Positions 3,585 to 23,981 of a DNA stretch of 28,059 nucleotides are shown here, piece by piece. The notes under the pieces are model-generated. The model was not told where the DNA came from, made no database searches, and saw nothing but the letters and a program-made list of their open reading frames with translations. How positions within the stretch are numbered: position 1 is the first letter of the stretch; each line of letters opens with the position of its first letter. The position numbers and the translations under genes are program-made. Source of the stretch: Candidatus Magasanikbacteria bacterium CG_4_10_14_0_2_um_filter_33_14 (GTDB lineage Bacteria; Patescibacteriota; Patescibacteriia; Magasanikbacterales; UBA922); NCBI GenBank assembly GCA_002793035.1, contig PFPL01000047.1, positions 1-28,059 of the forward strand, in the 5' to 3' direction.

Positions 3585-4970
<1,386 letters not shown>

Positions 4971-5099: not shown

Positions 5100-5101
5100 A
5101 T

Positions 5102-6634: not shown

Positions 6635-6660
6635 AAAGTTGTCTAAGCAATATTAGAATA

Positions 6661-7397
6661 GGCTCTAGACTAGCAGAAAGTATGATATACTATCAATACT
6701 ATGCTAGATACAGCCAAAATAAGTGAATATAAAATCAAAAAAATTATTACCCATTTTTGTTTAGATATTACCGCTGACAGAACGGCATATTTGCTGGGTA
6801 TAAATCGCAATACGATTAACCATTGGTATAAGATATTTCGACTTGCAGTTTATGCCTGGCAAATGAAAGAATGTAAAAAAATATTTGGTGAAGCAGAAGT
6901 GGATGAAAGTTACTTTGGTGCAAAACGGAAACGTGGCTATCGCGGAAAGCTGAAACGTGGTAGAGGAACTCAGAAACAACCGGCGTTTGGTTTGTTCAAA
7001 CGTAATGGAAGAGTGTATACTGAAATCATTCCCAATTGTACCAAAGCTGTATTACAAGGTATAATTAAAGGAAAAGTTGATCCATCTATGGTTATTTATT
7101 CAGATAAATGGCGTGGCTACGATGGGCTTGTTGACGTGGGATATGACAAACACTTTCGTGTGAATCATGGTGACAATGAATTTTCAAAGGGCAATGGTGT
7201 TCACATCAATGGTATTGAGAACTTCTGGAGCTTTACCAAACGACGTCTTACTAAATTCAATGGGGTGAAGAAAAATTTTGAACTTCATCTCAAAGAATCT
7301 GAATGGCGTTATGATAAAGATCCAAAAGTTCTTGAAAAAGAACTGTGGATTATTCTTAAAGGGCACTCTAAATTGTAAGTTTTGCTAGTCTAGAGCC
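6661..7397 (+). mobile_element. Intact IS1595-family insertion sequence
   Basis: Perfect terminal inverted repeats: ggctctagactagca (6661-6675) and tgctagtctagagcc (7383-7397). They are extendable to 17 bp if flanking bases are counted. The direct repeat tagaata sits immediately outside both ends (6654-6660 and 7398-7404). The element carries a single transposase ORF. Confidence 0.85.
6701..7378 (+). CDS. IS1595-family (ISXO2-like DDE) transposase
   Basis: N-terminal HTH-like segment (RTAYLLGINRNTINHWY). Catalytic-region pattern VDESYFG ... VIYSDKWRGYDGL ... HINGIENFWSFTKRRL is typical of the ISXO2-like transposase domain. Confidence 0.85.
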   Translation: MLDTAKISEYKIKKIITHFCLDITADRTAYLLGINRNTINHWYKIFRLAVYAWQMKECKKIFGEAEVDESYFGAKRKRGYRGKLKRGRGTQKQPAFGLFKRNGRVYTEIIPNCTKAVLQGIIKGKVDPSMVIYSDKWRGYDGLVDVGYDKHFRVNHGDNEFSKGNGVHINGIENFWSFTKRRLTKFNGVKKNFELHLKESEWRYDKDPKVLEKELWIILKGHSKL

Positions 7398-7412
7398 TAG
7401 AATAATATAAGG

Positions 7413-7444
7413 AATCATAGTCTTTATCAAAACTATGGTTTTTA
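7413..7444 (+). terminator. Rho-independent terminator, probably belonging to CDS 5567..6634 and displaced by the IS insertion
   Basis: Stem aatcatagt / actatggtt (one G-U pair) with a 10-nt loop, running into a short T-run (ttttt at 7439-7443). It lies just outside the right end of the IS1595 element. Confidence 0.5.
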
Positions 7445-7499
7445 TAAGATACAAAAAAAGTCAAAAAACTGTGCATATGTATTTTTTTAATACTTAACA

Positions 7500-8092
7500 A
7501 AATCCTCCAGCGAAGCTGGACGGTTACCATCCCATCAAAGATGGACTAGTTTACAACAAAGAGCCAGATAGTGTAGAATAATAACATATGACTAAGCCAA
7601 ACTACTACCGAAAAAGCAATCATACGACATACGATTGTCGCTACCATATTGTATTTATACCAAAATATAGATATCATGTACTCTCAGACGAAAAGGTAGC
7701 AACATTCGTGAAAACAGTATTTGAACAAGTATGTAATAATAATGAGGTAGTTATTATTGAAGGGAAGATACGTTCTAATCATGTCCACTTGTATCTATCC
7801 GTACCTCCTAAACATTCAATAGCAGACATAGTTAAATATCTCAAGGAAAAGAGTGCTTCACGTTCATTTAGACAATTTCCAGAACTCCTAAAACGCTACT
7901 GTGGCAGACACTTTTGGGCACGAGGATACTTTGTAAGTACTGTTGGCATAACAGATGATATAATAAAGGCTTACATACATAACCAAGAAGAGAAAGAACG
8001 GCAAGAGGAAGAACAACTACGTCAATTAAAACTTTGGAAATAGCACGACAAAGTCGGTGTCCCGTGAAACCGCCGACTATGTCGGCGGTAAT
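7500..8092 (+). mobile_element. IS200-type element (IS200/IS605 family, tnpA only); boundaries approximate
   Basis: A Y1 transposase ORF is flanked by locally GC-rich hairpins. Upstream hairpins are tccagc-gaa-gctgga (7506-7520) and ccatc-aaa-gatgg (7532-7544). The downstream hairpin is accgccgac-tat-gtcggcggt (8069-8089). There are no terminal inverted repeats, as expected for this family. Confidence 0.65.
7588..8043 (+). CDS. tnpA: IS200/IS605-family Y1 (HUH) transposase TnpA
   Basis: YDCRYHIVFIPKYRY, the HUH motif SNHVHLYLSVPP, and the catalytic-Tyr region HFWARGYFVSTVG. The size (151 aa) is typical. Confidence 0.92.
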   Translation: MTKPNYYRKSNHTTYDCRYHIVFIPKYRYHVLSDEKVATFVKTVFEQVCNNNEVVIIEGKIRSNHVHLYLSVPPKHSIADIVKYLKEKSASRSFRQFPELLKRYCGRHFWARGYFVSTVGITDDIIKAYIHNQEEKERQEEEQLRQLKLWK

Positions 8093-8231
8093 TCATTGAC
8101 ATTTAGTATGTTTAGTGAGAAAATATATCCTGTCATAAATCTATTAGTCTTAGATATGCCACTATTTTAGTAAAAAATGACTTTTCCTCGTTTTTTTGTA
8201 GATTATAACAAAACATTATTTTAGTACTTTT

Positions 8232-8774
8232 ATGTTAAAATTTTTTGTAAAAATATTTAAAACACCTGAAAATATAATTTCTTTTCCAAAAAACGATCTT
8301 AGCCAGATGGATTTTTTTGAAATTGGAGAAAAAATACAAGATAAAGTAAAAAAAATGTTTAGTGGTTCTTTGGCTATCAGACAAATTGACGCTGGATCAG
8401 ACAATGCCTGTGAACAAGAACTTGTGGCGTTGTCTAATAGTTTTTATGATATAGAACGTTTTGGTATTCATTTTGTGGCTTCACCAAGACATGCTGACAT
8501 GCTTTTGGTGACTGGTCCTGTGACACGAAATATGGTCAAGGCACTTAAAGATGCTTATGATGGTACTCCTGATCCTAAAATTGTGGTAGCAATAGGGGAT
8601 GATGCTATTGGTGGGGGAATATTTAAAGATTCTTATGCTGTATTAAATGGAGTAGATTCAGTAATACCTGTAGATTATCAAATTCCTGGAGATCCTCCTA
8701 CACCTACTTTTATTCTTCAATCTTTACTTAAGATTCTTGAAACAATAGAAAATAAACCTTCACAGAAAAAATAA
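8232..8774 (+). CDS. NuoB/HycG/HyfI-like hydrogenase small-subunit homologue with degenerate Fe-S ligands
   Basis: Family motifs ERFGIHFVASPRHADMLLVTGPVTR, PDPKIVVAIGDDAIGGGIF and VDYQIPGDPPTP are present. The positions normally holding the four cluster cysteines read D57, C60, D124 and D154. Confidence 0.85.
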   Translation: MLKFFVKIFKTPENIISFPKNDLSQMDFFEIGEKIQDKVKKMFSGSLAIRQIDAGSDNACEQELVALSNSFYDIERFGIHFVASPRHADMLLVTGPVTRNMVKALKDAYDGTPDPKIVVAIGDDAIGGGIFKDSYAVLNGVDSVIPVDYQIPGDPPTPTFILQSLLKILETIENKPSQKK

Positions 8775-8775
8775 T

Positions 8776-10827
8776 ATGTTAGAAATTATTACATCATCAA
8801 TTAGCTTTTTTACGTTACTTTCTTTTTTTGGAGTTGGTGCAGTAGGTTCTTTGTTAGTACATAAAAATAACAAAAATGCCAATGCTTGGAGTAGTTTTTT
8901 TGCTATTGTAGGTTCATTCTGGGGTGTGTTTTTTTCCATTATTATGATTTTAAGGAAGAAGAGTTTACTGTTTGATTTGAAAACATCAATTTTTTCACTT
9001 TTTAATATATCTTTTCATATTGATTTATTATCTAGTTTTTTTATTTTTGTTATTTCTTTGTTAGCATTATTTTGTTCTATTTATGGTATAGGATATATTA
9101 GACATTATTACAAAAAATATGATATTGGTGTTTTAGGATTTTTTTATAATTTATTTATTGGTAGTTTGTTTTTAGTTGTTACTTCTTCCAATGCTTTATT
9201 TTTTTTAATTTTTTGGGAAATCATGTCGATTGCTTCATACTTTTTAGTTGTCTATGATAGTAATGATGAAAGCAATGTAAAAGCAGGTTTATTGTATTTG
9301 GTAATGACTTACATAGGAACATCTTTTATTATTTTGTCTTTCTTACTTTTGTATAAGTATATTGGATCTTTTGATTTTTTGGTGATAAAAGATAGTATAG
9401 CTCTTGTGCCTGCAGTTATAAAAAATATTGTTTTTATCTCTGCGTTTATAGGTTTTGGTTTGAAGGCTGGTATTATTCCTTTACATATTTGGTTGCCAGC
9501 AGCTCACCCTGCTGCCCCTTCTCATGTTTCAGCTTTGATGTCAGGGGTGATGATTAAGACTGGTATTTACATGATGATAAGATTGTTTTTGGATATTCTA
9601 CAACCAATACCACTTTGGTGGGGTTTGGTAGTTTTGGTGGTTGGGTCTATTTCAGCTTTACTTGGAGTTTTGTATGCACTTACTGAACATGATATAAAAA
9701 GATTGTTGGCTTACCATAGTATAGAAAATATTGGTATTATTTTGCTTGGTTTGGGGAGTGCATTGACTTTTTATTCCCTCAACTTATCAGCTTTAGCTTT
9801 GCTTGGTTTGGTAGCTGCCTTATTTCATACAATAAATCATGCTATTTTCAAGGCTCTACTTTTTTTGAGTGCAGGATCTGTTATCAATGAAACACATACT
9901 CGTAATATGGAGGAATATGGTGGACTTATAAAGTATATGCCACAAACAGCCTTGTTTTTTCTTGTTGGATCCATTGCAATTTCTGCCTTGCCACCGTTTA
10001 ATGGTTTTTTTAGTGAGTGGTTGACTTACCAAGCTTTGTTTCAAGGAATAGCGCAAATGCATTTTTGGACACAGTGGATTTTTATTTTAGCTGCCGGTTC
10101 ATTAGCCTTTACTGGTGGCTTAGCTCTAGCTTGTTTTGTCAAAGCTTTTGGTGCTACATTTTTGGCACGTCCTCGAAGTAAGGAGGTAACTCATGCTAAA
10201 GAGTCTGCTTTATCTATGCGTTTAGGTATGGGTTCTTTGGCAGTATTAGCACTTTTGTTTGGTGTTTTTTCTGGTTATATAATTAGTTTACTTAAAACAA
10301 TTGGACAAGGTCTAAGTGTTTTTAAAGATTCAGCTTCGGCTGTAGATGTTTCATCTGCTCAAATTATAAACGTCTCTAATGGATTTTCTGTAATCTCTGG
10401 TTTTGGAATTTTTACTTTGTTGGTTGTTATTACTTTTTTGGTAATTTTTATCTTTAAAAAAATAATCAATAATAAACAAAAAGAATGTATCAGTAATACT
10501 TGGGATTGTGGTACAGATTTGAGTCCACGTGCGGAAATAACTGCAACAGGATTTTCAAGATCAATTGTTCAAATATTTAGTGGTTTGTTAAAACCAACTA
10601 TTCAACATCATATTGAATATTATGATGATGAAAATAGGTATTTACCAAAATCAAGGACAGTTACTCTAAATATTGGTAACATGTATCATACTTATTTTTA
10701 TCAGCCTTTACATTTAGTAATTAACAAATTATCAACTAGAGCTAGAGATATACAAAATGGAAATATTGATCTTTATATTTCTTATATTTTTATTGCACTT
10801 ATGTTAGCTCTATTAGTAATATTATAA
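8776..10827 (+). CDS. HyfB/NuoL/MrpA-like antiporter-type membrane subunit
   Basis: Polytopic protein of 683 aa with the signature WLPAAHPAAPSHVSALMSGVMIKTGIYMMIR plus HSIENIGIILLG and HAIFKALLFLSAG. Confidence 0.88.
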   Translation: MLEIITSSISFFTLLSFFGVGAVGSLLVHKNNKNANAWSSFFAIVGSFWGVFFSIIMILRKKSLLFDLKTSIFSLFNISFHIDLLSSFFIFVISLLALFCSIYGIGYIRHYYKKYDIGVLGFFYNLFIGSLFLVVTSSNALFFLIFWEIMSIASYFLVVYDSNDESNVKAGLLYLVMTYIGTSFIILSFLLLYKYIGSFDFLVIKDSIALVPAVIKNIVFISAFIGFGLKAGIIPLHIWLPAAHPAAPSHVSALMSGVMIKTGIYMMIRLFLDILQPIPLWWGLVVLVVGSISALLGVLYALTEHDIKRLLAYHSIENIGIILLGLGSALTFYSLNLSALALLGLVAALFHTINHAIFKALLFLSAGSVINETHTRNMEEYGGLIKYMPQTALFFLVGSIAISALPPFNGFFSEWLTYQALFQGIAQMHFWTQWIFILAAGSLAFTGGLALACFVKAFGATFLARPRSKEVTHAKESALSMRLGMGSLAVLALLFGVFSGYIISLLKTIGQGLSVFKDSASAVDVSSAQIINVSNGFSVISGFGIFTLLVVITFLVIFIFKKIINNKQKECISNTWDCGTDLSPRAEITATGFSRSIVQIFSGLLKPTIQHHIEYYDDENRYLPKSRTVTLNIGNMYHTYFYQPLHLVINKLSTRARDIQNGNIDLYISYIFIALMLALLVIL

Positions 10828-10831
10828 TTTT

Positions 10832-11758
10832 ATGTTAGTTTTTATTTGGATAATACAATTAATTTTTATACCATTTTTTTCACCATTGTGTATTGGTATC
10901 ATTAGAAAGATAAAAGCTAAATTGCAAAATCGTCAAGGTGCAAATATTTTTCAACCCTATAGGGATCTTTGGAAACTTTTACACAAAGATGAAGTAATAA
11001 GTAGTGATGCTTCTTGGATTTTTAAATTTACTCCTTATATTATTTTTGCTGTGACTTTGGTCGTTGGTCTTAGCGTCCCTCTTTTTTTACCACGTATTGT
11101 AGGTTTTGTTACTAGTGATATATTGTTTATTGTTTATGCTTTAGCTATTAGTACTTTCTTTATGGCTTTAGCTGGTATGGATACAGGAAGTGCTTTTGGT
11201 GGCTTTGGCTCAAGTCGTGAAATGACTATTGCAGCTTTAGCTGAAGGTGGTTTTATTTTTTCACTTTTGACTATGGCTTTGATAGCTGGTTCTAGTAATT
11301 TGTTTACCATAGCTGGTCTTACTAGATCAATTGATAGTCAATCATTTTTGCCAGCCATATTGGCTTTTGGAGGCTTTTTTATTATTTTATTGGCTGAGAC
11401 TTCCAGATTTCCTTTTGATAACCCTGCTACTCATTTGGAATTGACTATGGTTCATGAAGCTATGATTTTGGAATGTTCAGGTAAACGTTTAGCACTTATG
11501 GAATGGGCAGCTTCAAATAAGTTACTTATTTTTATGTCTCTTGGTGCTAATTTATTTTTTCCATTTGGACTTGATTTGAATGTTGGTTTGGGTACAATAG
11601 TCTTGGGTATGTTTTACTTTTTAATAAAAATATTTTTGTTTTGTGTGGTTGTAGCTCTTTTAGAATCAAGTATCGCTAAATTTAGATTTTTTCGCTTACC
11701 AGATTTATTGCTAGTTTCTTTTATTTTCAATGTGGTGGCCATTGGACTTATAAAGTGA
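10832..11758 (+). CDS. HyfC/HycD/NuoH-like membrane subunit
   Basis: Polytopic protein of 308 aa. It contains the ETSRFPFDNPATHLELTMVHEAMILECSG motif (the NuoH-type E..R.PFD..E.E.EL pattern). Size and position match HycD/HyfC. Confidence 0.82.
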   Translation: MLVFIWIIQLIFIPFFSPLCIGIIRKIKAKLQNRQGANIFQPYRDLWKLLHKDEVISSDASWIFKFTPYIIFAVTLVVGLSVPLFLPRIVGFVTSDILFIVYALAISTFFMALAGMDTGSAFGGFGSSREMTIAALAEGGFIFSLLTMALIAGSSNLFTIAGLTRSIDSQSFLPAILAFGGFFIILLAETSRFPFDNPATHLELTMVHEAMILECSGKRLALMEWAASNKLLIFMSLGANLFFPFGLDLNVGLGTIVLGMFYFLIKIFLFCVVVALLESSIAKFRFFRLPDLLLVSFIFNVVAIGLIK

Positions 11759-11796
11759 ACTTAAAATATTTTTTTGATTTTTTTATTTGATAATTT

Positions 11797-12444
11797 ATGA
11801 ATTTATTAACTTTACAGTTTTTATCACAGATACTCCTATTATCTATTGTTTTTTTACTTATCATGAAGAAAAATTTTTCGGCTGTTTCTGCTTATAGTTT
11901 GCAATCATTGGTAGTGGTTATCATATTGTTGAACTCATTTTTTGAAACCAAAGACATGTGGATGTTGCTAGTTATCTTGGTGATGTTGATTGTCAAAGTT
12001 ATTTTGGCTCCTGTATTTTTTATTCGTTTGATTAGAAAGTATGCTTTGGCTTTCTCGGTTAGTACTTATCTTAGCACACCTATAACATTAATCATTATTA
12101 CAATCTTAGTATTCATAGCTCACTCTCAAAAATTAATTCCTTTGACTAGGATCGTTCCTGATCACCAGGTCTTGTTATCACTGGCCTTGTCATCACTGTT
12201 TCTTTCTCTATTTTTGATAGTAAATCGTAAAGGTGCTTTGTCACAAATTATAGGTATTTTATCTTTTGAAAATAGTATTGTCGTGTTTGCTGTTTTTGCT
12301 AATTTGGAACAGTCAGCTGCTCTTCAATTAGGAATTGTTTTTGATATTTTCATTTGGATTATGATTGCCTCCGTTTTTATATCAATGCTTTATAAACATT
12401 TTGGAACATTGAATGTATCTTCTATGAAAAATCTAAAAGATTAA
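11797..12444 (+). CDS. HyfE-like small membrane subunit
   Basis: The 215-aa length matches HyfE. The C-terminal region LSQIIGILSFENSIVVFAV...MLYKHFGTLNVSSMKNLK parallels the E. coli HyfE C-terminus (ENG...THGTLDVNNLTALK), recalled from memory. Confidence 0.8.
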   Translation: MNLLTLQFLSQILLLSIVFLLIMKKNFSAVSAYSLQSLVVVIILLNSFFETKDMWMLLVILVMLIVKVILAPVFFIRLIRKYALAFSVSTYLSTPITLIIITILVFIAHSQKLIPLTRIVPDHQVLLSLALSSLFLSLFLIVNRKGALSQIIGILSFENSIVVFAVFANLEQSAALQLGIVFDIFIWIMIASVFISMLYKHFGTLNVSSMKNLKD

Positions 12445-12448
12445 AAAT

Positions 12449-13894
12449 ATGGAAATTCTTTTTATCATTACAACTTTGTTTATAGTCGCTGTTATAAATT
12501 TGATTACCAAAAGAAAAAGTATTATTGAAGTTGCTTCAATAATTGCTTCCTTAATTTATTTAGTATTATCTGTTGCTATAGCCCTACAGGTGTCTTCATC
12601 TGGCCTCTATGCCCCATGGTCTTGGCAATTTTTTGCAATTGATGATCTAGGAGCTATTATTGTACTGGTTCTTGGGTTGGTTGGTTTTACGACTACTATT
12701 TATTCTGTACAATACTTACGTCAGGAGATGTACAAAAATATCATTGGTTTCAAACGAATGAAACAATATTTTGTTTTATTAAACATATTTTTTGCAGCTA
12801 TGTTTTTGGCGATTACTTCTAGTAATCCCATTTTTGCTTGGATTTCTATTGAGGCTACAACTTTGTCTACAGCCTTTTTGATAAGTTTTTATAATAAACC
12901 ATCAGCTGTTGAAGGTGCTTGGAAATATTTAATCATTAACTCTGTTGGGTTACTTTTGGGATTTTTTGGAACTTTATTATTTTTTACTTCTATTGATTTG
13001 TCTAGTGCCGGTTTAATTAATTGGCAGTTACTGACTGCTAATGCTACACACCTCGACCCATTACTTGCAAAAATTGCCTTTGTTTTTGTACTTATTGGTT
13101 ATGGAACTAAAGTTGGTTTGGTACCAATGCATACCTGGAAACCTGATGCTTATAGCAAAGCACCTGCACCGATTGGTGCCTTATTGTCTAGTGCCTTATT
13201 ACCAATTGCCTTTGTAATAATACTTAGATACAAAGCCATTACAGATATTGTTGTTGGTCCTTTGTTTAGTCAGAGATTGTTTATTACTTTTGGTTTATTA
13301 TCTATTGTTGTGGCTGCTTTGATTATGTTTAACGCTAAAAATTACAAAAGACTTTTGGCTTATTCTAGTATTGAAAATGCCGGAGTGATGGTTCTTGGTT
13401 TTGCTTTTGGTGGCTTAGGTGTCTTTGCCGCTGTGCTTCATTTAATTTATCATTCTTGTGTTAAAGTTGTACTTTTTTTATCTTCGGGAAACTTGTTGCT
13501 TAAATACAATTCAGCCAAAATTTTTAATATCAAAGGTGCTTTAAAAATTATTCCAGTAACTAGTGTACTTTTTATTATAGGATTTTTGATTGTAACAGGT
13601 ATCCCGCCATTTGGTATGTTTATGACCAAACTTTATGTGTTGTCATCTGGTATGAAAGAGTATCCTATTGTTAGTTTAATTGCTTTGTTTTTTTTAGCAT
13701 TGGTTTTTGTAAGTTTTCTAAAATACATTACAACTATGTTTTTTGGAGACAAACCGGATAACATTGAGAAGGGCGAAAATAATATTTGGCTTTTGATACC
13801 ACAAATTTTTTTGGTAGTTGTTATTATTATTCTGAGTTTTTATTTACCACCTTTTTTACATACTTTAATCAACAATGTTGTTTTGCAATATTAA
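12449..13894 (+). CDS. HyfD/HyfF/NuoM-N-like antiporter-type membrane subunit
   Basis: Polytopic protein of 481 aa with VPMHTWKPDAYSKAPAPIGALLSSALLP and AYSSIENAGVMVLGF, typical of the NuoL/M/N-Mrp antiporter family. Confidence 0.85.
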   Translation: MEILFIITTLFIVAVINLITKRKSIIEVASIIASLIYLVLSVAIALQVSSSGLYAPWSWQFFAIDDLGAIIVLVLGLVGFTTTIYSVQYLRQEMYKNIIGFKRMKQYFVLLNIFFAAMFLAITSSNPIFAWISIEATTLSTAFLISFYNKPSAVEGAWKYLIINSVGLLLGFFGTLLFFTSIDLSSAGLINWQLLTANATHLDPLLAKIAFVFVLIGYGTKVGLVPMHTWKPDAYSKAPAPIGALLSSALLPIAFVIILRYKAITDIVVGPLFSQRLFITFGLLSIVVAALIMFNAKNYKRLLAYSSIENAGVMVLGFAFGGLGVFAAVLHLIYHSCVKVVLFLSSGNLLLKYNSAKIFNIKGALKIIPVTSVLFIIGFLIVTGIPPFGMFMTKLYVLSSGMKEYPIVSLIALFFLALVFVSFLKYITTMFFGDKPDNIEKGENNIWLLIPQIFLVVVIIILSFYLPPFLHTLINNVVLQY

Positions 13895-15470
13895 TATGAT
13901 AAAAGAAAAAATACAATTATATCTTCCAGAAAACGTAAATGTTGATTATCACGATAATTTGGCTATTTTTGAAGTGTCTTCTTCACAAATAGGGGATGTT
14001 GTTAATGATTTGCATAATCAAAAAAAACTTCCACTTAAGTTAGTTACTGTAACAGATGAAAGAAAAGAAAATGGGTCATTTAAAATTTGGTATTTATTTG
14101 GAGTGCCTGGTGATAATTTTTTTATGTGTCCTTTTGTTGTGTTGAAAAATACGATTGAATTTCCTTCATTGGCTAACATTGTACCTGAAATATTAAATTA
14201 TGAGAGAAAAATACAAACTTTTTTTGGTCTCAAAGCACTAGGCATACCAGATAATAGAGCTCTCATTTTACATGAAAATTATCCAAGTGATGTTTTTCCT
14301 CTTCGAAAAGATTTTGAGTGGAAAACTAAATTAAAAAAGTCTACTGGAAAATATGATTTTCAAGAAGTAAAAGGTGAAGGGATTTATGAGATTCCAGTTG
14401 GACCAATACATGCTGGTATTATTGAGCCTGGACATTTTCGTTTTAGTATGGTTGGAGAAAGTATTGTACAACTTGAACCACGCTTGGGTTATGTACACAA
14501 AGGTAGTGAAAAATTATTTGAAGTTCTTCCTCTTGAAGATAAAGTGCGCTTGTCAGAAAAAATTTCTGGTGATAGTTCTTTTAGTCATTCTTTAGCTTTT
14601 TGTCAGACAATAGAAAAACTAGCTGAAATTAATGTGACAAAACGTGCTTTATACTTGAGAACTATTTTTGCTGAATTGGAAAGACTGGCTAATCATTTTG
14701 GTGATATTGGAGCTATTATGATGGATACTGGTTTTAGTTTTGGTGGGGCTAATGGTTCACGTTTACGTGAGATGATTATGCAAATAAATGAAAAATTAAC
14801 AGGAAGCAGATTTTTGCGTCGAGTCAATACTATTGGCGGTGTAAAGAAAGACTTGAATAATGACAATAAAGATTATTTAAATAAGATATTAATAGATATT
14901 AGCAAAGATTTTGAAGAAGTTGTAGAAATTGCTGAAAATAGTGCTTCTGTATTGAATCGGCTCAAAGGTACAGGTATAATCTCTTTTGAGATAGCTAATA
15001 ATCTTGGTCTTGTAGGAGTAGCAGGTAGAGCAGTTGGTATAAAACGTGATACACGTATCGATCATCCTTATGCAGCTTATTTAGAAGTTTCTATGGGGCA
15101 AATACCTATCGAAGAAGAAGGGGACGTAAATGCTAGATTTCAAATTCGTCTTAAAGAAATTCGTAAATCATTAAATATAATACAAGAGTCTTTGCAAAAA
15201 ATGCCTGATGGTGAAATCGCTATTTCAAACAATGTCAATCTCATTATGAAAAAGAGTTCCTATGATGTTAGCATGGTTGAAGGTTGGCGTGGGGAAATAG
15301 TCTATTTTGTGGCTACAGATTCACAAGGAAACATTAGCAGAGTGTTCCCAAGAGATCCTTCATTTATCAACTGGTCAGCACTTGGAGAAGCTGGTTTGAA
15401 TAATATTGTACCTGATTTTCCTCTGATTAATAAGAGTTTTAATTTGTCTTATACAGGAAATGACCTATAA
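13875..15470 (+). CDS. HycE/HyfG-like fused NuoC-NuoD large-subunit homologue lacking all [NiFe] cysteine ligands
   Basis: The N-terminal part is NuoC-like. The NuoD/large-subunit core shows VGPIHAGIIEPGHFRF, EPRLGYVHKGSEKL and ELERLANHF. The N-terminal CxxC position reads S231-G-D-S234 and the C-terminal DPCxxC position reads N-L-S525-Y-T-G528. An alternative start at 13896 (MIKEK) would remove the overlap with the upstream gene. Confidence 0.88.
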   Translation: MLFCNINMIKEKIQLYLPENVNVDYHDNLAIFEVSSSQIGDVVNDLHNQKKLPLKLVTVTDERKENGSFKIWYLFGVPGDNFFMCPFVVLKNTIEFPSLANIVPEILNYERKIQTFFGLKALGIPDNRALILHENYPSDVFPLRKDFEWKTKLKKSTGKYDFQEVKGEGIYEIPVGPIHAGIIEPGHFRFSMVGESIVQLEPRLGYVHKGSEKLFEVLPLEDKVRLSEKISGDSSFSHSLAFCQTIEKLAEINVTKRALYLRTIFAELERLANHFGDIGAIMMDTGFSFGGANGSRLREMIMQINEKLTGSRFLRRVNTIGGVKKDLNNDNKDYLNKILIDISKDFEEVVEIAENSASVLNRLKGTGIISFEIANNLGLVGVAGRAVGIKRDTRIDHPYAAYLEVSMGQIPIEEEGDVNARFQIRLKEIRKSLNIIQESLQKMPDGEIAISNNVNLIMKKSSYDVSMVEGWRGEIVYFVATDSQGNISRVFPRDPSFINWSALGEAGLNNIVPDFPLINKSFNLSYTGNDL

Positions 15471-15557: not shown

Positions 15558-15586
15558 TTGAAATTAATATGAAATTAGCGTATAAT
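15558..15586 (+). promoter_or_regulatory. Sigma70-type promoter for the CBS/permease pair
   Basis: TTGAAA (15558-15563), a 17-nt spacer, then a perfect TATAAT (15581-15586). It lies about 70 nt upstream of the ATG at 15655. Confidence 0.55.
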
Positions 15587-15654: not shown

Positions 15655-16125
15655 ATGACAGAACAAGAAAAATATCTTGTCAGAAACAACATGCAAAATG
15701 TTGTGACATCGGTAAATATTAATGCTACTTTTAGTGAAGCATTACAAAAAATGGTCGACGGACGTACCAATGGTTTGGTTGTCGTTGATGATGAAAATTA
15801 TGTAAAAGGTATTCTATCTAGTATAGACTTGATTAGTTATTTGGTACCTGACTATTTAGAGGAGGATAAACATTTAGCTGCTTTTGAAGTTGCTGAAGAA
15901 TTTACAACCAGAATTAAAGAAATTGAAAATGAACCAATTACCAAATTTATGACAAAAGATGTTCATACTATTAAAGAAGATCGTACTTTGATGGAAGCTG
16001 CTACTATTCTTTCAGAGTTCAAAATTCGTCAGATTCCTGTAGTAAATGAGGAAGAAAAATTGGTTGGCTATATCAATCGTACTGACATTAAAAAAGCTAT
16101 TGCCCATGTTTTGGGAATTCATTAA
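15655..16125 (+). CDS. CBS-domain pair protein
   Basis: 156 aa with two CBS-like repeats (VVTSVN...GLVVVDDENYVKGILSSIDL and VHTIKED...IRQIPVVNEEEKLVGYINRTDI). Confidence 0.8.
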   Translation: MTEQEKYLVRNNMQNVVTSVNINATFSEALQKMVDGRTNGLVVVDDENYVKGILSSIDLISYLVPDYLEEDKHLAAFEVAEEFTTRIKEIENEPITKFMTKDVHTIKEDRTLMEAATILSEFKIRQIPVVNEEEKLVGYINRTDIKKAIAHVLGIH

Positions 16126-16152
16126 TAAAAATAATAAAGATTTATAAATTAT

Positions 16153-17427
16153 ATGGGAATTTCTTTTTGGATTACGCTCATTGTCTTTGTTGTTACCTAT
16201 GCTATAATAATTTCTGAAAAAGTTCATCGTACAGTCATTGCTATGGCTGGTGCAGGTCTTATGGTTTTGCTTGGTATTGTTACACAAGTAAAAGCTATTG
16301 AAGGAATTGATTTCAATACACTTGGACTTCTTATTGGTATGATGATTATCGTAGGAATTGCCAAGCATAGTGGAATGTTTCAATACGTTGCTATCTGGGC
16401 TACAAAAGTTGGTAAAGGAAATCCAACAAAAATTTATATTTTGTTGTTATCTATTATAGCCGTGTTTTCTGCTTTGCTCGATAACGTTACGACTGTCCTT
16501 CTTATGGTACCTGTTACTTTCGTAGTTGCTCACAACTTGAAAGTAAATCCTAAACCATTTTTGATTGGTGCAATTTTACTTTCTAATATTGGTGGTACAG
16601 CTACTCTTATTGGAGATCCACCAAACATTTTGATTGGTAGTGCTAGTGGTCTTACTTTCAATGATTTTATTGTGAATCTTGCTCCTATTTCTGTGTTAAT
16701 TTCTATAGTGACTATTGCACTTCTGATTTTTATTTATCGCAAACAACTTGTTGCAGCTCCAGAATCAGCAGCTATTATCGCAAAATTTAATCCAAAAGAT
16801 GCTATTTCTGATGTAAAACTACTTAAGAAATCTTTGTTTGTTCTTGCTATAGTTTTGGTAGGTTTCTTCACTCATGGAACTACACATCTTGAAGGTGCTA
16901 CTATTGCTCTTGGTGGTGCTGCTCTTATGTTACTTTTGACAATGCACGATCCTGAAGAACATTTGAAAGAAGTAGAATGGACAACGATTTTCTTCTTTAT
17001 GGGACTTTTCATTCTTGTAGTAGCTTTGGAAGAAGTTGGCGCAATTCGTATGTTGGCTGAAGGATTACTAAAACTTACAGGTGGTAATATGATTGCTACA
17101 ACCATGAGTGTTTTGTGGGGTTCTGCTGTATTTTCTGCTATTGTTGACAATATTCCTTTTGTAGCTACAATGATCCCTCTTATAAAGGATTTAGGTGCAA
17201 TTTCAGGCTTACCATTAGCACCATTGTGGTGGGTATTGGCTCTTGGTGCTGATATTGGTGGTAATGCAACTCTTGTTGGTGCTTCTGCCAATGTAGTAGT
17301 GAGTGGTATAGCTGGTAGAGAAGGACATAAGATTGGTTTTGGTGAATATATGAAGATTGCTTTACCTTTGACTTTTATAGGATTGGTCATGTGTTCAATT
17401 TACGTTTTCTTCCGTTATCTTGTTTAA
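16153..17427 (+). CDS. ArsB/NhaD-superfamily (CitMHS-like) ion/anion permease
   Basis: Polytopic protein of 424 aa with duplicated hairpin motifs SALLDNVTTVLLMVPV and SAIVDNIPFVATMIPL, plus GGTATLIGDPPNILIG. Confidence 0.8.
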   Translation: MGISFWITLIVFVVTYAIIISEKVHRTVIAMAGAGLMVLLGIVTQVKAIEGIDFNTLGLLIGMMIIVGIAKHSGMFQYVAIWATKVGKGNPTKIYILLLSIIAVFSALLDNVTTVLLMVPVTFVVAHNLKVNPKPFLIGAILLSNIGGTATLIGDPPNILIGSASGLTFNDFIVNLAPISVLISIVTIALLIFIYRKQLVAAPESAAIIAKFNPKDAISDVKLLKKSLFVLAIVLVGFFTHGTTHLEGATIALGGAALMLLLTMHDPEEHLKEVEWTTIFFFMGLFILVVALEEVGAIRMLAEGLLKLTGGNMIATTMSVLWGSAVFSAIVDNIPFVATMIPLIKDLGAISGLPLAPLWWVLALGADIGGNATLVGASANVVVSGIAGREGHKIGFGEYMKIALPLTFIGLVMCSIYVFFRYLV

Positions 17428-17607: not shown

Positions 17608-19356
17608 ATGAAATACAACACAAAATTAACATTCAAAATGTATTGGCAACAATCTTGGAAGTATAAGTGGATATTCATGTCCATGTTTTTACTTCTATTG
17701 ATTGGTGATACTTTTTCTATTCTTGCTCCTTATTGGTATAAGAAATTTTTTGATGCCCTTTCCTCTAATCCTGATGTTCAGATTCTTTATACCACATTAT
17801 TTATTATTTTAGCTATAAAATTATTGCATTGGTTTTTTATTCGTATCATGGCTTTTTTGTATATAAAATTTAATACAGACTGTCTGAAAGATTTGAATAA
17901 TATTTGTTTTTCCAAAGTTCATAGACATTCTTTTTCTTTTTTCAACAATAGTTTTGTAGGTTCTCTTGTCAAAAAAGTTGGTAGATTTCTGCAAGCTTTC
18001 GATAGAATCTCAGATAGAATTATTTGGGATGTTTTACCTATAATTGTCAATGTTACTCTTATCTCTGTTGTATTATTTAATCTTAACAAGTTTTTTGCTT
18101 TGATAATAATTTCTTGGATTTTTATTTTTGTTTTGACTAGTTACTTTTTTAGTAAATTCAAATTAAAATATGATTTTAAGAGAAGTCAGCTTGATTCCAA
18201 AGTGGGGGCATTTTTGGCTGATTCTTTTACCAATAATATAAATGTAAAATTATTAGTTGGTTATGATAGAGAATGTAAAGACTTCCAACAAAAAACAGAA
18301 GATTTAAGAAAAATAAGAAAATTTTCTTGGGATATTGCTACTTGGTTTGATGGTGCACAATGGATGCTCATGATTATGCTCGAGATTGTGATGATGTTTT
18401 ATGCTGTAAAAGTTTGGCAGACTGGAATTTTGACTGTAGGGGACTTTATTCTTATCCAATCTTATCTTATTATTATTTTTGAAAAGTTTTTTGGTTTTGG
18501 TCGTGTGATTAGAGATTTTTATGAGTCTCTCGCTGATGCCGAAGAAATGACTGAAGTATTAAATATGCCTTATGATGTACAAGATGTAAAGAATGCCAAA
18601 ACTTTGCAAGTTACGACAGGTAAGATAGAATTTGTAGATGTAAAATTTGCTTATAACAAAACAAGGCAAGTAATCAAAAAAATGAACTTGGTAATAAAAC
18701 CAAATGAAAAAATAGCTTTAGTAGGTTCATCTGGGGCAGGGAAGTCTACTATTGTAAAATTACTTTTACGTCAGCATGATATCTCTAGTGGAAAAATTTT
18801 GATTGATGGACAAAGTATTACCAAAGTTACTCAAGAAAGTTTGTGGCAAAATGTTAGTCTCGTTCCTCAAGATCCAATTCTTTTTCATAGAAGTATTATG
18901 GAAAATATTCGTTATGCCAAAGCTGAGGCAACTGACGAAGAAGTTATGGAAGCTGCTAAGCAAGCCAATGCTCACGAATTTATTTTGGGTTTGGCAGAAG
19001 GCTACAATACTCTTGTGGGTGAGAGAGGAATCAAACTTTCTGGTGGAGAAAGACAACGTGTAGCAATAGCTCGAGCAATACTAAAAAATTCACCAATTCT
19101 TATACTAGACGAAGCAACTTCTAGTCTTGATTCTAAATCGGAAAAGCTTATTCAAGGAGCCTTGGACAATTTGATGAAAGGTAAAACAGTGATTATTGTA
19201 GCTCACAGACTTTCTACTATTATGCATTCTGATAGAATCTTGGTAATAGAACAAGGAGGTATAGTAGAACAAGGTTCACACAAAGTACTTCTAAAAAAGA
19301 AAAAAGGTATTTATAGTAATTTGTGGAATATTCAAGTTGGAGGCTTTTTGTCTTGA
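17608..19356 (+). CDS. ABC exporter, fused TMD-NBD half-transporter (MsbA/ATM1-like type)
   Basis: N-terminal six-helix-type membrane domain. Walker A GSSGAGKST, signature LSGGERQRVAIARA, Walker B ILILDEATSSLD, H-loop VAHRLST. Confidence 0.92.
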   Translation: MKYNTKLTFKMYWQQSWKYKWIFMSMFLLLLIGDTFSILAPYWYKKFFDALSSNPDVQILYTTLFIILAIKLLHWFFIRIMAFLYIKFNTDCLKDLNNICFSKVHRHSFSFFNNSFVGSLVKKVGRFLQAFDRISDRIIWDVLPIIVNVTLISVVLFNLNKFFALIIISWIFIFVLTSYFFSKFKLKYDFKRSQLDSKVGAFLADSFTNNINVKLLVGYDRECKDFQQKTEDLRKIRKFSWDIATWFDGAQWMLMIMLEIVMMFYAVKVWQTGILTVGDFILIQSYLIIIFEKFFGFGRVIRDFYESLADAEEMTEVLNMPYDVQDVKNAKTLQVTTGKIEFVDVKFAYNKTRQVIKKMNLVIKPNEKIALVGSSGAGKSTIVKLLLRQHDISSGKILIDGQSITKVTQESLWQNVSLVPQDPILFHRSIMENIRYAKAEATDEEVMEAAKQANAHEFILGLAEGYNTLVGERGIKLSGGERQRVAIARAILKNSPILILDEATSSLDSKSEKLIQGALDNLMKGKTVIIVAHRLSTIMHSDRILVIEQGGIVEQGSHKVLLKKKKGIYSNLWNIQVGGFLS

Positions 19357-19381
19357 CATTTCGCTAATTTGGCTATATTAT
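19353..19381 (+). promoter_or_regulatory. Sigma70-type promoter for the small Cys-rich ORF, with a palindrome over the -10
   Basis: TTGACA (19353-19358, overlapping the ABC transporter stop codon), a 17-nt spacer, then TATTAT (19376-19381). The perfect palindrome gctatat-t-atatagc (19372-19386) covers the -10 element. Confidence 0.5.
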
Positions 19382-19409
19382 ATAGCGATATTAACTTAAT
19401 TATAAAATT

Positions 19410-19541
19410 ATGTCAGAAGAAACAAACAAATCAGAAGAAGAACTAGAAGAAGATTCTTGTTGTGGTGAAGGAAACTGCTCTACAGAAGATAAAGAAGAAT
19501 CTGAGGAAAGTTGTTGTGGTGGCTGTAATTGTTGTGTTTAA
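19410..19541 (+). CDS. Unannotated 43-aa acidic, cysteine-rich peptide (MSEETNKSEEELEEDSCCGEGNCSTEDKEESEESCCGGCNCCV)
   Basis: My own translation; the ORF is shorter than any entry in the supplied track. It contains 8 Cys arranged CC-x4-C and CC-x2-C-x-CC, 14 Glu/Asp and a single basic residue (Lys7... Lys28 is the second). It is bracketed by a promoter-like element (19353-19381) and a terminator (19583-19616). Confidence 0.55.
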   Translation: MSEETNKSEEELEEDSCCGEGNCSTEDKEESEESCCGGCNCCV

Positions 19542-19582
19542 AAACGCAGATATTTAGATATTTATGCGGATAAACGCGGAAT

Positions 19583-19616
19583 AAAATCTCTCTATTTAGG
19601 GAGATTTTGTTTTTAT
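19583..19616 (+). terminator. Rho-independent terminator after the Cys-rich ORF
   Basis: aaaatctc (19583-19590) pairs with gagatttt (19601-19608) around a 10-nt loop, followed by gttttt. Confidence 0.6.
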
Positions 19617-19665
19617 GAGTATTTGTAGTAGAATATTAGTATCTTAAATAAACATTGACTAACTT

Positions 19666-22614
19666 ATGTCCAAAACATTCAACAAAGCCCAAAAAGAAGC
19701 TATCGAATACAACGATGGTAATTTGCTGATTATAGCTGGAGCGGGGACTGGTAAAACGACTGTGATTACTGAAAAGATTTCTTATATTGTAAAAAATGAA
19801 TTGGCATTACCAGAGGAAGTCTTGGCGCTTACTTTTACCGACAAAGCTGCACAAGAAATGCAAGAGCGTGTGGACGATCTGATTGAAACACCTTATACCG
19901 AAATGCAAATTTCTACGTTCCATAGTTTTTGTCAAAAAGTCTTGGAAGAGTACGGATTAGAAATTGGTTTACCAACCAATTTTAGATTATTGAATGAGAC
20001 TGACGCTTGGCTACTTTTGCGTGAACATATTTATGATTTCAATTTTGAGTATTATCGTCCGATGGGAAGTCCAAATCGTTATATTCACGAACTGCTTACA
20101 CACTTTTCCAAAGCAAAAGATGAGATGATTACTTCAGAAAATTATTTGGATTATGTAAAAGGACTTATACTAGATAAAGATGAAGCAGAAATACAAGAAA
20201 AAAATAGATTGATTGAATTAGCTGATGCTTATCACAAATATCAAAAATTATTACTTGACAATGAAGCCCTCGACTTTGGCGACATTATTTTTTATGCTGT
20301 CAAACTTTTGCAAGATAGACCAAACGTGCTCAAAAAATTACAAAAGAGATTTAAATATATAATGGTTGATGAATTCCAAGATGTAAACTGGGCGCAATAC
20401 CAACTGGTAAAATTATTGGCAGGTGAAGAAAATAAACTAACTGTAGTAGGGGATGATGATCAAGCGATTTATTCTTTTCGTGGATCCAACGTAGCTATCA
20501 TCATGAATTTCAAGACAGATTATCCTGATGCCAAAAATATTGTGCTGACGGACAACTATCGCTCTGGACAAGAAATTCTAGATTTAGCTTACGAATCTAT
20601 CAAAAATAACAATCCTCATCGTCTAGAAGAGAAATTACAAATTAGCAAAAGATTAGAAAGTGGGCTAAAAGATTTGCAAGCCGAGATTAGTCACTTGCAT
20701 TATGAAACAATAGATGAAGAGGTGGTTGGAGTGATAAATAAAATAGTTGAGATAAAAGAAAGCGAAAAAGATAGTAATTGGGATGATTTCGCGATTCTAG
20801 TCCGTGCCAACTCTCACGTAGAGCCCTTTAGTAACGCACTAGAGAGCTTTGGAATTCCTTTTGAGTATCTTGCCTCAGCTGGGCTTTATCGTCAAGATAT
20901 TGTGATTGACGCTTTCAATTTTCTCACACTTTTGACCAATATTTATGATGATAAAGCATTCTTCCGTCTGCTCAAAATGCCGTTTCTAGAATTTAGCCAA
21001 AATGATTTGCAAAAAGTAACTAGCACTGCCAAAAGAAAAAGTATGTCATATTACGAGATGTTGAAACGTGCTCGTGAATTCTTTTTGTCTGATCACGCTG
21101 TAGCCGTAGCTGAAAAATTACTCAATGCTTGTCATGAAGGAATAAAACAAAGTAAGGAAGAAAAACCAACGACAATACTTTATCAATTTATGGAAAGTAT
21201 TGGTTATCTGTCATATTTAACTATTGAAGAAAATAAAGATAACAAAAATGTTATTAGACAAATCTATCATCTGAAACAATTTTTTGATCTTATTCGTACT
21301 TACGAAGAAAATGTGCCGGGAGCACACGTGGCTGGTTTTGTAGAAAATTATGAATTCATTATTGAGTCAGGTGATGGTGGCAAAATAAATCAAATCAAAG
21401 ACACACCAGACTCAGTCAATATCATCACTGTCCATGGTTCAAAAGGTCTTGAATACAAAAATGTTTTCATTGTAAATTTGGTAGAAGAGAGATTTCCAAC
21501 ACGAAGAAAAAGTGAGGGGATTGCGTTGCCAGATGATTTGATAAGAGAAAAATTTTTAGAAAAAAATGATTTGCACTATCAAGAGGAACGTCGTCTTTTT
21601 TATGTAGCAGTCACTCGTGCCAAACAAAGATTATTTCTGACAAGTGCCAGTAGTTATGGTGGTACTAGAGCTAAGAAAATTAGTCGCTTTCTCGCCGAGC
21701 TTGATTTCAATAACAAAGAAAAAAAACTAGCAGAAAAAGAACAAAGCCTAATGGAAGAAATCAAAAAATTAAACACTCAAGTAGAAAATAATCAAGAAGA
21801 AATAGAATATATTCCACCAAAGATATTTTCTTATTCTCGTATTAGTACTTATCAAAAATGCCCTTACAATTATAAGCTTGCTTACGTCTTGAATTTGCCA
21901 AGTAAAGGAAGTCCGCATTTTAGTTTTGGTAATACTGTTCACGGTACTTTGCAAGAATTCTATGAAAAAGTGCAAGATATGAATAGTGCCAAACAAGTAT
22001 CTTTGTTTGAGACTGTTGTGGAAGATACTAGTGACGGTAAAATAAAAGTACCTAGTCAAGAAGAGTTACTCGCCATATACAAAAGAAAATGGATTCCAGA
22101 TTGGTACAAGAGTAAAAACCAAAGAGAAGAATATTTTGCCAAAGGTGAAGATTTGCTCAAAGAATTTTATAGATCTCAAAAAGATTCTTGGACTATCCCA
22201 GTTTCTATCGAAGGTGGTTTCAAAATTAAAATTGGAGAATATTTCATCAAAGGTCGCATCGATAGAATAGATCCTGTTGGCGAAGATAAATTGGAAATTA
22301 TAGATTATAAGACTGGTCAACCAAAAGACAAATTGACTATTGACGACAAACAACAACTTCTTATTTATCAGATTGCTGTCGAGACTTTGCCTCAATATCA
22401 GAATATGGGCAAAATTGATAAGTTGACATTTTTTTATTTGAATGAAAACAAGAGAATGTCTTTTGTCGGCACTGACAAAGATAAAGAAAAACTAGAAGCA
22501 AAACTTTTTGACGCGATGGAGAGGATTCAAAAAGGGGATTTCAAAGCGACACCAAACAAGCATGTTTGTCAGTATTGTGATTTCAAAGAGATTTGTGAGT
22601 TTCGTCAGCTTTGA
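19666..22614 (+). CDS. UvrD/PcrA-type SF1 helicase fused to a C-terminal PD-(D/E)XK (Cas4/AddB-like) nuclease with a 4-Cys cluster
   Basis: Helicase motifs AGAGTGKT, MVDEFQDVN, VVGDDDQAIYSFRGS, TVHGSKGLEYKNVFI and ERRLFYVAVTRAKQRLF. The C-terminal domain carries YQKCPYNY ... GRIDRID ... EIIDYKTG ... QLLIYQIA ... CQYCDFKEIC (C-x2-C-x5-C). Confidence 0.9.
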   Translation: MSKTFNKAQKEAIEYNDGNLLIIAGAGTGKTTVITEKISYIVKNELALPEEVLALTFTDKAAQEMQERVDDLIETPYTEMQISTFHSFCQKVLEEYGLEIGLPTNFRLLNETDAWLLLREHIYDFNFEYYRPMGSPNRYIHELLTHFSKAKDEMITSENYLDYVKGLILDKDEAEIQEKNRLIELADAYHKYQKLLLDNEALDFGDIIFYAVKLLQDRPNVLKKLQKRFKYIMVDEFQDVNWAQYQLVKLLAGEENKLTVVGDDDQAIYSFRGSNVAIIMNFKTDYPDAKNIVLTDNYRSGQEILDLAYESIKNNNPHRLEEKLQISKRLESGLKDLQAEISHLHYETIDEEVVGVINKIVEIKESEKDSNWDDFAILVRANSHVEPFSNALESFGIPFEYLASAGLYRQDIVIDAFNFLTLLTNIYDDKAFFRLLKMPFLEFSQNDLQKVTSTAKRKSMSYYEMLKRAREFFLSDHAVAVAEKLLNACHEGIKQSKEEKPTTILYQFMESIGYLSYLTIEENKDNKNVIRQIYHLKQFFDLIRTYEENVPGAHVAGFVENYEFIIESGDGGKINQIKDTPDSVNIITVHGSKGLEYKNVFIVNLVEERFPTRRKSEGIALPDDLIREKFLEKNDLHYQEERRLFYVAVTRAKQRLFLTSASSYGGTRAKKISRFLAELDFNNKEKKLAEKEQSLMEEIKKLNTQVENNQEEIEYIPPKIFSYSRISTYQKCPYNYKLAYVLNLPSKGSPHFSFGNTVHGTLQEFYEKVQDMNSAKQVSLFETVVEDTSDGKIKVPSQEELLAIYKRKWIPDWYKSKNQREEYFAKGEDLLKEFYRSQKDSWTIPVSIEGGFKIKIGEYFIKGRIDRIDPVGEDKLEIIDYKTGQPKDKLTIDDKQQLLIYQIAVETLPQYQNMGKIDKLTFFYLNENKRMSFVGTDKDKEKLEAKLFDAMERIQKGDFKATPNKHVCQYCDFKEICEFRQL

Positions 22615-22675
22615 TTCTAAGATGATTTTGGATTTGAGATTATATATGGTAAGATAAAGTAAAGAAAATAAAATT

Positions 22676-22761: not shown

Positions 22762-22784
22762 TACTTATTTTAAATTGTAAAATT

Positions 22785-23084: not shown

Positions 23085-23113
23085 GTAAATATAAATTATT
23101 TATTTTTAAAAAT

Positions 23114-23970: not shown

Positions 23971-23981
23971 TTGTTATATTT

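Follow-up and report, generated by a model that had tools for sequence, protein, structure and literature searches.

Ehr complexes (Ech-related, which means related to the energy-converting hydrogenases) have carried that name since Coppi 2005 and Marreiros et al. 2013, and the class is defined by a large subunit without the Ni-Fe cysteine motifs (PMC6349859, PMC10284858). The subunit set of Geobacter sulfurreducens comprises ehrA-D, L and S (GSU0739-0745; subunit names from PMC7894505), and the class is phylogenetically close to the group 4f hydrogenases (PMC10284858). Jaffe et al. 2020 (BMC Biol 18:69, PMC7304191) describes the sequences from Candidate Phyla Radiation (CPR, Patescibacteria) bacteria as a monophyletic clade within Ehr, without the L1 and L2 metal-binding cysteines, that 'likely cannot interact with H2'. 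Here we analyse a stretch of 28,059 nucleotides from Candidatus Magasanikbacteria bacterium CG_4_10_14_0_2_um_filter_33_14 (assembly GCA_002793035.1, contig PFPL01000047.1, positions 1 to 28,059; hereafter the window). A sequence-only reading had pointed to an open reading frame (ORF) at 13875-15470 as a hydrogenase large-subunit homologue with altered Ni-Fe motifs; this ORF encodes EhrL, the large subunit of a six-subunit, CPR-type Ehr complex.

The locus agrees with the Ehr class in each of its features. Its large subunit is homologous to those of group 4 hydrogenases and has no Ni-Fe cysteines, and the cluster at 8232-15470 holds A (NuoL-like), B (NuoH-like), C (HyfE-like), D (NuoN-like), L and S subunits, like the Geobacter set as given by its published gene list and like the class of Marreiros et al. 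It also falls next to group 4f-type hydrogenases, on a rough neighbour-joining tree whose outgroup carries no HydDB classing. The sequence is of CPR origin and clusters separately from other Ehr; its closest EhrL homologue, at 85%, is from a Candidatus Magasanikbacteria genome, and the other top matches come from CPR metagenome-assembled genomes (MAGs) of Magasanikbacteria, Paceibacteria, Peregrinibacteria and Gracilibacteria. Protein family and taxonomic group thus match the clade of Jaffe et al. 2020 (PMC7304191), and the loss of the Ni-Fe cysteines in the CPR large subunit, while correct, is already published. The accessible part of that paper makes no mention of the small subunit, the lost [4Fe-4S] ligands, the six-gene unit or an ATP synthase in the vicinity. 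Two points may be new: in a monophyletic subclade dominated by CPR the small subunit has lost its cluster completely, and this subclade is linked to the ATP synthase operon. We found no description of a cluster-less Ehr small subunit in the searchable literature, a scope that does not extend to Coppi 2005 and Marreiros 2013.

The four Ni-Fe cysteines of the large subunit are replaced

The ORF at 13875-15470 (forward strand) runs uninterrupted for 531 codons, contains LSEKISGDSSFSHSLAFCQTIE and ends in INKSFNLSYTGNDL directly before the stop codon (TAA, 15468-15470). Because EhrL homologues are 520-524 residues long and begin with MIKEK, and because the preceding gene ends at 13894, the true start is most likely the ATG at 13896, so that the gene would span 13896-15470 and residue numbers would shift by -7; we keep the 531-residue numbering here. 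Pfam recognises a NuoC-like (Complex1_30kDa) and a NuoD-like (Complex1_49kDa) domain, the HycE-like NuoC-NuoD fusion, and the top phmmer match among chains in the Protein Data Bank (PDB) is Escherichia coli HycE (7z0s_E, E = 2.6e-67). The alignment to HycE pairs both motif stretches, with LSEKISGDSSFSHS opposite LSDRVCGICGFAHS and KSFNLSYTG opposite GSLDPCYSC, and thereby places S231 (TCT, 14565-14567), S234 (AGT, 14574-14576), S525 (TCT, 15447-15449) and G528 (GGA, 15456-15458) at the four Ni-Fe cysteine positions. The L1 motif of group 4 [NiFe] hydrogenases (R-x-C-G-x-C-x3-H) is replaced by EKI-S-GD-S-SFSH in the remnant E-K-I-S231-G-D-S234-S-F-S-H (14556-14588, forward strand), and the L2 motif (D/E-P/L-C-x-x-C-x-x-H/R) by N-L-S-Y-T-G-N-D-L* in the C-terminal remnant N-L-S525-Y-T-G528-N-D-L (15441-15467, forward strand). 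Both remnants are identified by the HycE alignment, by column conservation and by the family consensus, which for L1 is E-x-x-S-G-D-[STE].

The substitution of all four ligands, which the sequence-only reading had proposed, is therefore confirmed by alignment and codons alike. Its second claim, that the protein ends where the mature hydrogenase would end and has no C-terminal extension, also agrees with the alignment, in which N529-D530-L531 lie opposite the T-D-R of HycE, which we take to be the end of the processed protein. Its third, that the HycE/NuoD fold is kept around the altered sites, is supported by the Pfam domains and by an AlphaFold2 model (pLDDT 79.6, pTM 0.85), for which the best fold match is HycE (TM-score 0.85), followed by E. 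coli NuoCD. The EPGHFRF loop of EhrL is likewise common to its true hydrogenase relatives. A further suggestion, that the conserved His/Tyr pair of the NuoD quinone pocket might be kept instead, did not hold: in an ungapped phmmer alignment to Thermus thermophilus Nqo4 (2fug_4), I183 stands at the position of His38 and G232 at that of Tyr87. With the Ni-Fe cysteines and the quinone His/Tyr pair both replaced, the EhrL pocket is neither hydrogenase-like nor complex-I-like.

The replacements are fixed in the family. Across 121 sequences (the query plus 120 homologues from the database, each at least 60% identical) S231, G232, D233 and G528 are present in 121/121, S525 in 120/121 and S234 in 119/121, and the terminus SFNLSY[ST]GNDL is near-invariant in the 120 homologues. 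This near-invariance rules out the sequencing or assembly error at the ligand codons that had been named as a possible objection; an error would have to affect four separate codons, and homologues from independent assemblies agree by the hundred. All six genes of the cluster are intact ORFs. Against the 85%-identical orthologue (L002) the ratio of nonsynonymous to synonymous substitution rates (dN/dS) is 0.11 for EhrL and spans 0.09-0.19 over the six genes, all of which are under purifying selection. Apart from the ligand positions, C243 (14601-14603, in AFCQ) is present in 121/121 close homologues and is not found in the hydrogenase relatives.

The small subunit has lost the proximal cluster ligands

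The ehrS-like gene (8232-8774, forward strand) encodes a 180-residue homologue of NuoB, HycG and MbhJ (Pfam Oxidored_q6, 6.4e-25). Alignments to MbhJ of Pyrococcus furiosus and HycG of E. coli place D57, C60, D124 and D154 at the four [4Fe-4S] cysteine positions. C60 is the one ligand cysteine that is kept; it is also the only cysteine in the protein, which contains no CxxC and differs in this from the four-cysteine proximal-cluster subunit of group 4 [NiFe] hydrogenases. With D/C/D/D at the ligand positions, a single cysteine and no CxxC, no conventional Cys-ligated [4Fe-4S] cluster is expected. The query and its 120 closest homologues read DCDD (79 sequences) or DCDN (42), and 81 have just one cysteine. 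Deeper members of the clade carry Thr or Ser at the first ligand position, Glu at the second and Gly at the third; C60 (8409-8411) is invariant in the core CPR clade.

Other routes for electrons are equally missing from the sequences that we covered. None of the six proteins of the cluster has a CxxC motif, and there is no HycF/EchF/NuoI-type ferredoxin subunit or domain and no Hyp gene among the ORFs and domains of the window. In relatives with the same small-subunit type we found no CxxCxxCxxxC motif in the small subunits, and no Hyp, NuoE/F/I or Fdh genes in the Pfam-annotated flanks of L001/L002 (the 85% relative) and of four further CPR loci (L083-L086), the flanks of the other such loci not having been screened. 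As far as such motifs can tell, the complex has no recognisable redox cofactor site, since it carries neither Ni-Fe ligands nor Cys-motif iron-sulfur (FeS) sites nor quinone ligands. Without such a site and without a Cys-motif FeS path, it is neither a hydrogenase nor an FeS-based electron-transfer enzyme.

Cluster loss defines a subclade within a widespread six-gene family

We scanned one genome per GTDB species, which gave at least 591 relatives, and analysed the best 80 loci, calling ORFs by script from the first start codon and annotating them with phmmer. The six-gene unit was found in all 80 and in every related CPR locus. It has two gene orders, S-A-B-C-D-L in the CPR-type clade, in Rokubacteria and in a few others and A-B-C-D-L-S elsewhere, and it spans many bacterial phyla as well as Thaumarchaeota, Methanomassiliicoccus and Methanosarcinales. 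The operon is a self-contained unit, in which S comes first in the window and last in most other Ehr.

The 84 large subunits analysed fall into three classes. Five belong to true hydrogenases (L021, L069, L077, L078 and L080), with four cysteines in L and four in S; as a group these come from Thermincola, Desulfotomaculum, Ectobacillus, a Negativicutes MAG and a Myxococcales MAG. Roughly 61 have a Cys-less L and a four-Cys S (FeS-Ehr), and about 11-12 operons, including that of the window, lack the Ni-Fe cysteine set in L and the cluster cysteine set in S (noFeS). The Cys-less large subunits share the consensus E-x-x-S-G-D-[S/T/E]...N-[L/Q]-S-Y-[S/A]-G-x-D-[L/R] in bacteria and archaea. The five hydrogenases are about 40% identical to the query, are ordered A-B-C-D-L-S, and share its GPIHAGIIEPGHFRF and PDFPLINKSF motifs, its NuoH-type loop and its lack of an extension. 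They differ in having E-C-G-x-C-x-H and E-L-C-Y-x-C-x-D-R at the ligand sites and a four-Cys S.

A C-terminal extension is present in 0/84 large subunits, the five true hydrogenases included, which end ...ELCYxCxDR*. Because these Cys-containing hydrogenases are equally tail-less, the missing tail is ancestral to the lineage and not a by-product of Ni loss, a correction to the sequence-only reading.

On a rough neighbour-joining tree, calculated without bootstrap support, the noFeS operons form one clade nested in FeS-Ehr, and all Ehr together have the true hydrogenases as their outgroup. On this tree the window complex descends from a group 4 [NiFe] hydrogenase with an identical subunit set. 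The noFeS clade also includes a few non-CPR MAGs (Firestonebacteria, Endomicrobiales, Thermoleophilia and Bdellovibrionales). Ferredoxin-type CxxCxxCxxxC motifs are fused to S in three of the hydrogenases (two motifs each in L021 and L069, one in L077) and, as two motifs, in ten FeS-Ehr (L053, L055, L059, L062, L064, L065, L067, L070, L073 and L074); with script-called starts these small subunits are 236-354 residues long. The fused part would be an electron-input domain that replaces a separate HycF/NuoI subunit. The remaining FeS-Ehr have the proximal cluster only. Most sampled non-CPR Ehr have a four-Cys S, some with a fused 2x[4Fe-4S] ferredoxin-like domain, whereas the window has neither. 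The picture is one of stepwise loss, in which the Ni-Fe site went first, the ferredoxin domain next in many lineages, and the last cluster finally.

Four contigs carry two Ehr-type clusters in tandem or close together (L035 and L071 from Nitrospirota, L020 from Methanomassiliicoccus and L006 from Fibrobacteria).

The membrane subunits keep their charged residues

EhrL is encoded by the last gene of a tightly packed cluster, in the order S-A-B-C-D-L, with all genes on the forward strand. The ehrA-like gene (8776-10827) encodes an antiporter-type subunit of 683 residues that resembles HyfB, HycC and NuoL. It matches the NCBIfam model for hydrogenase-4 subunit B at 4.5e-197, with a score of 656.6, slightly under the cutoff of 667; among PDB chains it matches HycC (7z0s_C) at 8.6e-83, an MrpA chain at 7e-43 and an MrpD chain at 2.6e-34. 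It retains E148 in transmembrane helix (TM) 5, K230 in TM7, H351, H355 and K359 in TM8, and E412 in TM12, within motifs common to all three classes. The second antiporter-type subunit, ehrD-like (12449-13894, 481 residues), resembles HyfF and NuoN; it matches hydrogenase-4 subunit F at 2.8e-121, under the cutoff, its PDB matches are antiporter-like chains of MBS, MBH and NDH, and it retains E135, K221, H331, H335 and K339. In its TM12 the noFeS clade has Lys (K394), in contrast to Glu in FeS-Ehr and the true hydrogenases, a switch of charge that is specific to the clade and affects a canonical position for ion translocation.

The ehrB-like subunit (10832-11758, 308 residues) is HycD/MbhM/NuoH-like (Pfam NADHdh, 5e-44; HycD 7z0s_D, 1.6e-39). 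Its loop AETSRFPFDNPATHLELTMVHEAMILECSG is common to true hydrogenases, FeS-Ehr and noFeS-Ehr, and the loop AET-R-PFDNPATHLELTM-HEAM-LE-SG is equally conserved in the three. The ehrC-like subunit (11797-12444, 215 residues) is HyfE-like, with a match to the NCBIfam hydrogenase-4 membrane subunit (2.4e-16, under the cutoff) and, in an orthologue, a weak match to PF00420 (NuoK); it has no sequence match in the PDB, and its membrane 'EN' motif is common to all classes. As judged from the aligned sequences, then, the charged residues that we checked and the NuoH-type loop are conserved.

Comparison with better-characterised relatives

The closest well-known complexes share parts of this architecture. 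HycE of the E. coli formate hydrogenlyase (FHL; 7z0s_E) and its Hyf counterpart are NuoC-NuoD fusions like EhrL, and the partners in the window resemble HyfB, C, E, F and I. HycE has four cysteines and a cleaved C-terminal tail, and EhrL has neither; FHL and Hyf furthermore include the ferredoxin subunits HycF/HyfH and HycB/HyfA as well as a formate dehydrogenase, and the cluster in the window has none of these. Complex I (NuoCD/Nqo4) and the MBS/Mbx complexes of Thermococcales have the same fold and the same C-terminal end point, and are non-hydrogenase descendants of group 4. Complex I has the quinone His/Tyr pair and cluster N2, and the window complex is without both. MBS reportedly uses its proximal cluster; in the window complex, the pocket ligands and the cluster are both gone.

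The antiporter-like subunits are also homologous to those of the Mrp Na+/H+ antiporter, with the same charged residues, and Mrp works independently of redox chemistry, as is proposed below for Ehr. Mrp has MrpB/E/F/G and no NuoH-, NuoB-, NuoC- or NuoD-like subunits. The window has NuoH-, NuoB- and NuoCD-like subunits and so departs from an MrpA-G set without a peripheral arm; the likeness to Mrp would be one of functional analogy and not of membership.

The cluster lies near an ATP synthase operon

The window begins within an operon for an F-type ATP synthase (alpha, gamma, beta and epsilon subunits, 25-5521), and the full atpI-B-E-F-H-A-G-D-C operon is present on the window's own 110.9-kb contig (L087:4819-13517). 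In the 85% relative (L001/L002) ehrS starts 185 bp past atpC. In the window the interval between atpC and ehrS (5567-8043) holds a 355-residue ORF without a family match and two transposase genes, of the IS1595 type (DDE, 6701-7378) and the IS200/IS605 type (Y1, 7588-8043). Directly upstream of the cluster, and in the same direction, genes for ATP synthase are found in L001/L002, L005 and L013 and also in the distant L049, and in L009 they lie nearby; none was seen adjoining any scanned locus outside the noFeS clade. A rough Fisher test of adjacency in noFeS loci, assuming 60 comparable non-noFeS loci and without phylogenetic correction, gives p ~1e-6. Na+-coupled c subunits are marked by a Gln / Glu-Ser/Thr signature, as established by c-ring work. 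The c subunit here (L087:6265-6498; ...AFAEAIAIYALV) has no such signature, and the ATPase is thus probably H+-coupled.

Two ORFs within the atp operon, at 1414-1980 (188 residues, between atpA and atpG) and 2980-3540 (186 residues, between atpG and atpD), have no family match, are mutually dissimilar and are missing from the 85% relative. Downstream of ehrL, a CBS-pair protein and a CitMHS/ArsB/NhaD-superfamily transporter (15655-17427) are present in the closest relatives only. In a scan for promoters and terminators, sites were no more frequent than in shuffled sequence; those ahead of ehrS (8096-8124) and of the CBS gene (15558-15586) are suggestive only, and since this holds for the promoter-like site ahead of the CBS gene, we do not assign the CBS and CitMHS genes to the operon. 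Further downstream (17608-27552) lie housekeeping genes for an MsbA-like ABC exporter, an AddA-like helicase-nuclease (982 residues), DciA, a class II aminoacyl-tRNA synthetase, MreB and MreC, as well as two ORFs without a family match (23114-23902 and 23982-24380).

Discussion

We consider it somewhat probable that the CPR-type Ehr complex, a group 4 hydrogenase descendant without recognisable redox sites, works as a redox-independent, Mrp-like cation/proton translocator or antiporter. Strong purifying selection and the canonical Glu, Lys and His residues kept in the membrane subunits suggest that ion movement is most likely retained. Both antiporter-like subunits, together with the NuoH-like subunit and its coupling loop, would then still move ions in an Mrp-type manner. 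The peripheral S and L subunits may stay in place as a cap or gate of the NuoH-like ion cavity, and the conserved polar and acidic substitutes for the metal ligands could line that cavity. CPR bacteria are generally described as being without respiratory chains and quinones. In several lineages the cluster comes directly after the ATP synthase genes, and in such fermentative cells the complex would probably use or convert the proton gradient from ATP hydrolysis, for instance to extrude Na+ or to maintain pH homeostasis.

Several points weigh against this assignment. Papers of 2020-2023 call the function of Ehr unknown, and there is no experiment on any Ehr. Confidence in the AlphaFold2 model falls under 50 in two stretches of the 524-residue protein, 145-201 and 501-524, which contain the beta1-beta2 loop and the C-terminus with the L2 remnant. 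Adjacency to atp genes is not universal, as the CPR loci L083-L086 have unrelated flanks. A cofactor that is not ligated by protein, or is otherwise unconventional, could also escape a search for ligand motifs. Finally, an antiporter leaves unexplained why the replaced positions (S-G-D-S-S, N-L-S-Y-S-G-N-D-L and D/C/D/D) are near-invariant, and this invariance could point to a specific ligand or metal site.

That last possibility leads to a different account, in which the polar and acidic pocket newly serves for binding or catalysis: a metal cation or a small molecule would bind there, and this binding, or else a non-redox reaction, would drive or gate ion transport. The site would be formed by S, G-D, S, S and H together with N, S, Y, G and N-D of L, and by D57, C60, D124 and D154 of S with E61, E63 and D123, and the complex would be a pump with a chemical drive or a channel gated by a ligand, and not a plain antiporter. 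It would account for the fact that precisely these positions are near-invariant in 120 homologues each of L and S, that the S-G-D...N-L-S-Y-S-G motif is kept across bacterial and archaeal Ehr, and that C243 of L (Ehr-specific) and C60 of S, which otherwise have no explanation, are invariant; the kept coupling loop of the NuoH-like subunit fits as well. We nevertheless regard it as unlikely, as neither a candidate ligand nor a conserved enzyme in the neighbourhood presents itself, the model is of low confidence at the site, and a fixed metal sphere is hard to reconcile with Asn for D154 in 42/121 close homologues and with Glu for C60 and Gly for D124 in deeper members. Less probable again is a redox-driven ion pump that is fed with electrons by a partner encoded separately, as in the proposed formate dehydrogenase-Ehr pairing, and uses them to reduce an unknown acceptor within the changed pocket. 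Published speculation on Ehr usually takes this form, and the idea suits the ~61 other operons that keep the four proximal-cluster cysteines, some with two ferredoxin-type motifs on S. It sits poorly with an S that has one cysteine and no cluster motif, with the absence of CxxC from every subunit, with flanks of L001/L002 and L083-L086 that hold no electron-input genes, and with a missing quinone His/Tyr pair in bacteria that are generally described as quinone-free. A formate dehydrogenase-Ehr redox complex was accordingly rejected for the noFeS clade, which lacks an FeS cluster and shows no partner genes in those annotated flanks that we examined.

Two other explanations deserve almost no credence. 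NCBI labels homologues 'NADH-quinone oxidoreductase subunit C', and NuoD models match at E = 6.5e-67, as would be expected of a complex-I-type, NuoD-like subunit of a quinone reductase. Every NuoD, NuoCD and FpoD model, however, falls far under its curated cutoff (NF004739, 226 bits against 360; TIGR01962, 197.9 against 459; NF008728 for NuoCD, 145 against 840). The substitutions at His38 and Tyr87, the lack of an N2 cluster and the absence of NuoA/E/F/G/I/J genes from the window make a quinone reductase extremely improbable. A decaying hydrogenase relic or pseudogene, or a product of sequence errors, might be suspected from the loss of all metal ligands and from the two transposase genes shortly upstream. 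Intact ORFs and dN/dS of ~0.1 rule out decay, and the invariance of the substitutions, at four codons, leaves an error no more credible.

A bolder form of the translocator reading is possible but doubtful. Here the complex would have shed every redox centre (Ni-Fe, the proximal cluster and the ferredoxin clusters) and kept, under strong selection, the whole interface that couples the peripheral arm to NuoH. The former cluster site, now an invariant Asp/Cys/Asp/Asp(Asn) set, and the former Ni-Fe pocket would have become a new coupling site that binds an ion or a ligand. If this is true, the machine would act jointly with the adjacent H+-type F1Fo ATPase to energise the membrane, or keep it in balance, in cells that have no respiratory chain.

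For the family as a whole, the noFeS subclade narrows a question about Ehr function that dates from 2005, because it has neither an iron-sulfur cluster nor a module for electron input, and its role in CPR cells is very unlikely to involve redox chemistry. The question shifts from which redox reaction Ehr catalyses to what role a redox-dead, complex-I-like machine plays. The subclade offers a natural test of how coupling machinery of the complex I type can be powered or put to use in the absence of electron transfer, and the complex is a candidate for the management of membrane ion gradients in CPR bacteria that have an ATP synthase and no respiratory chain.

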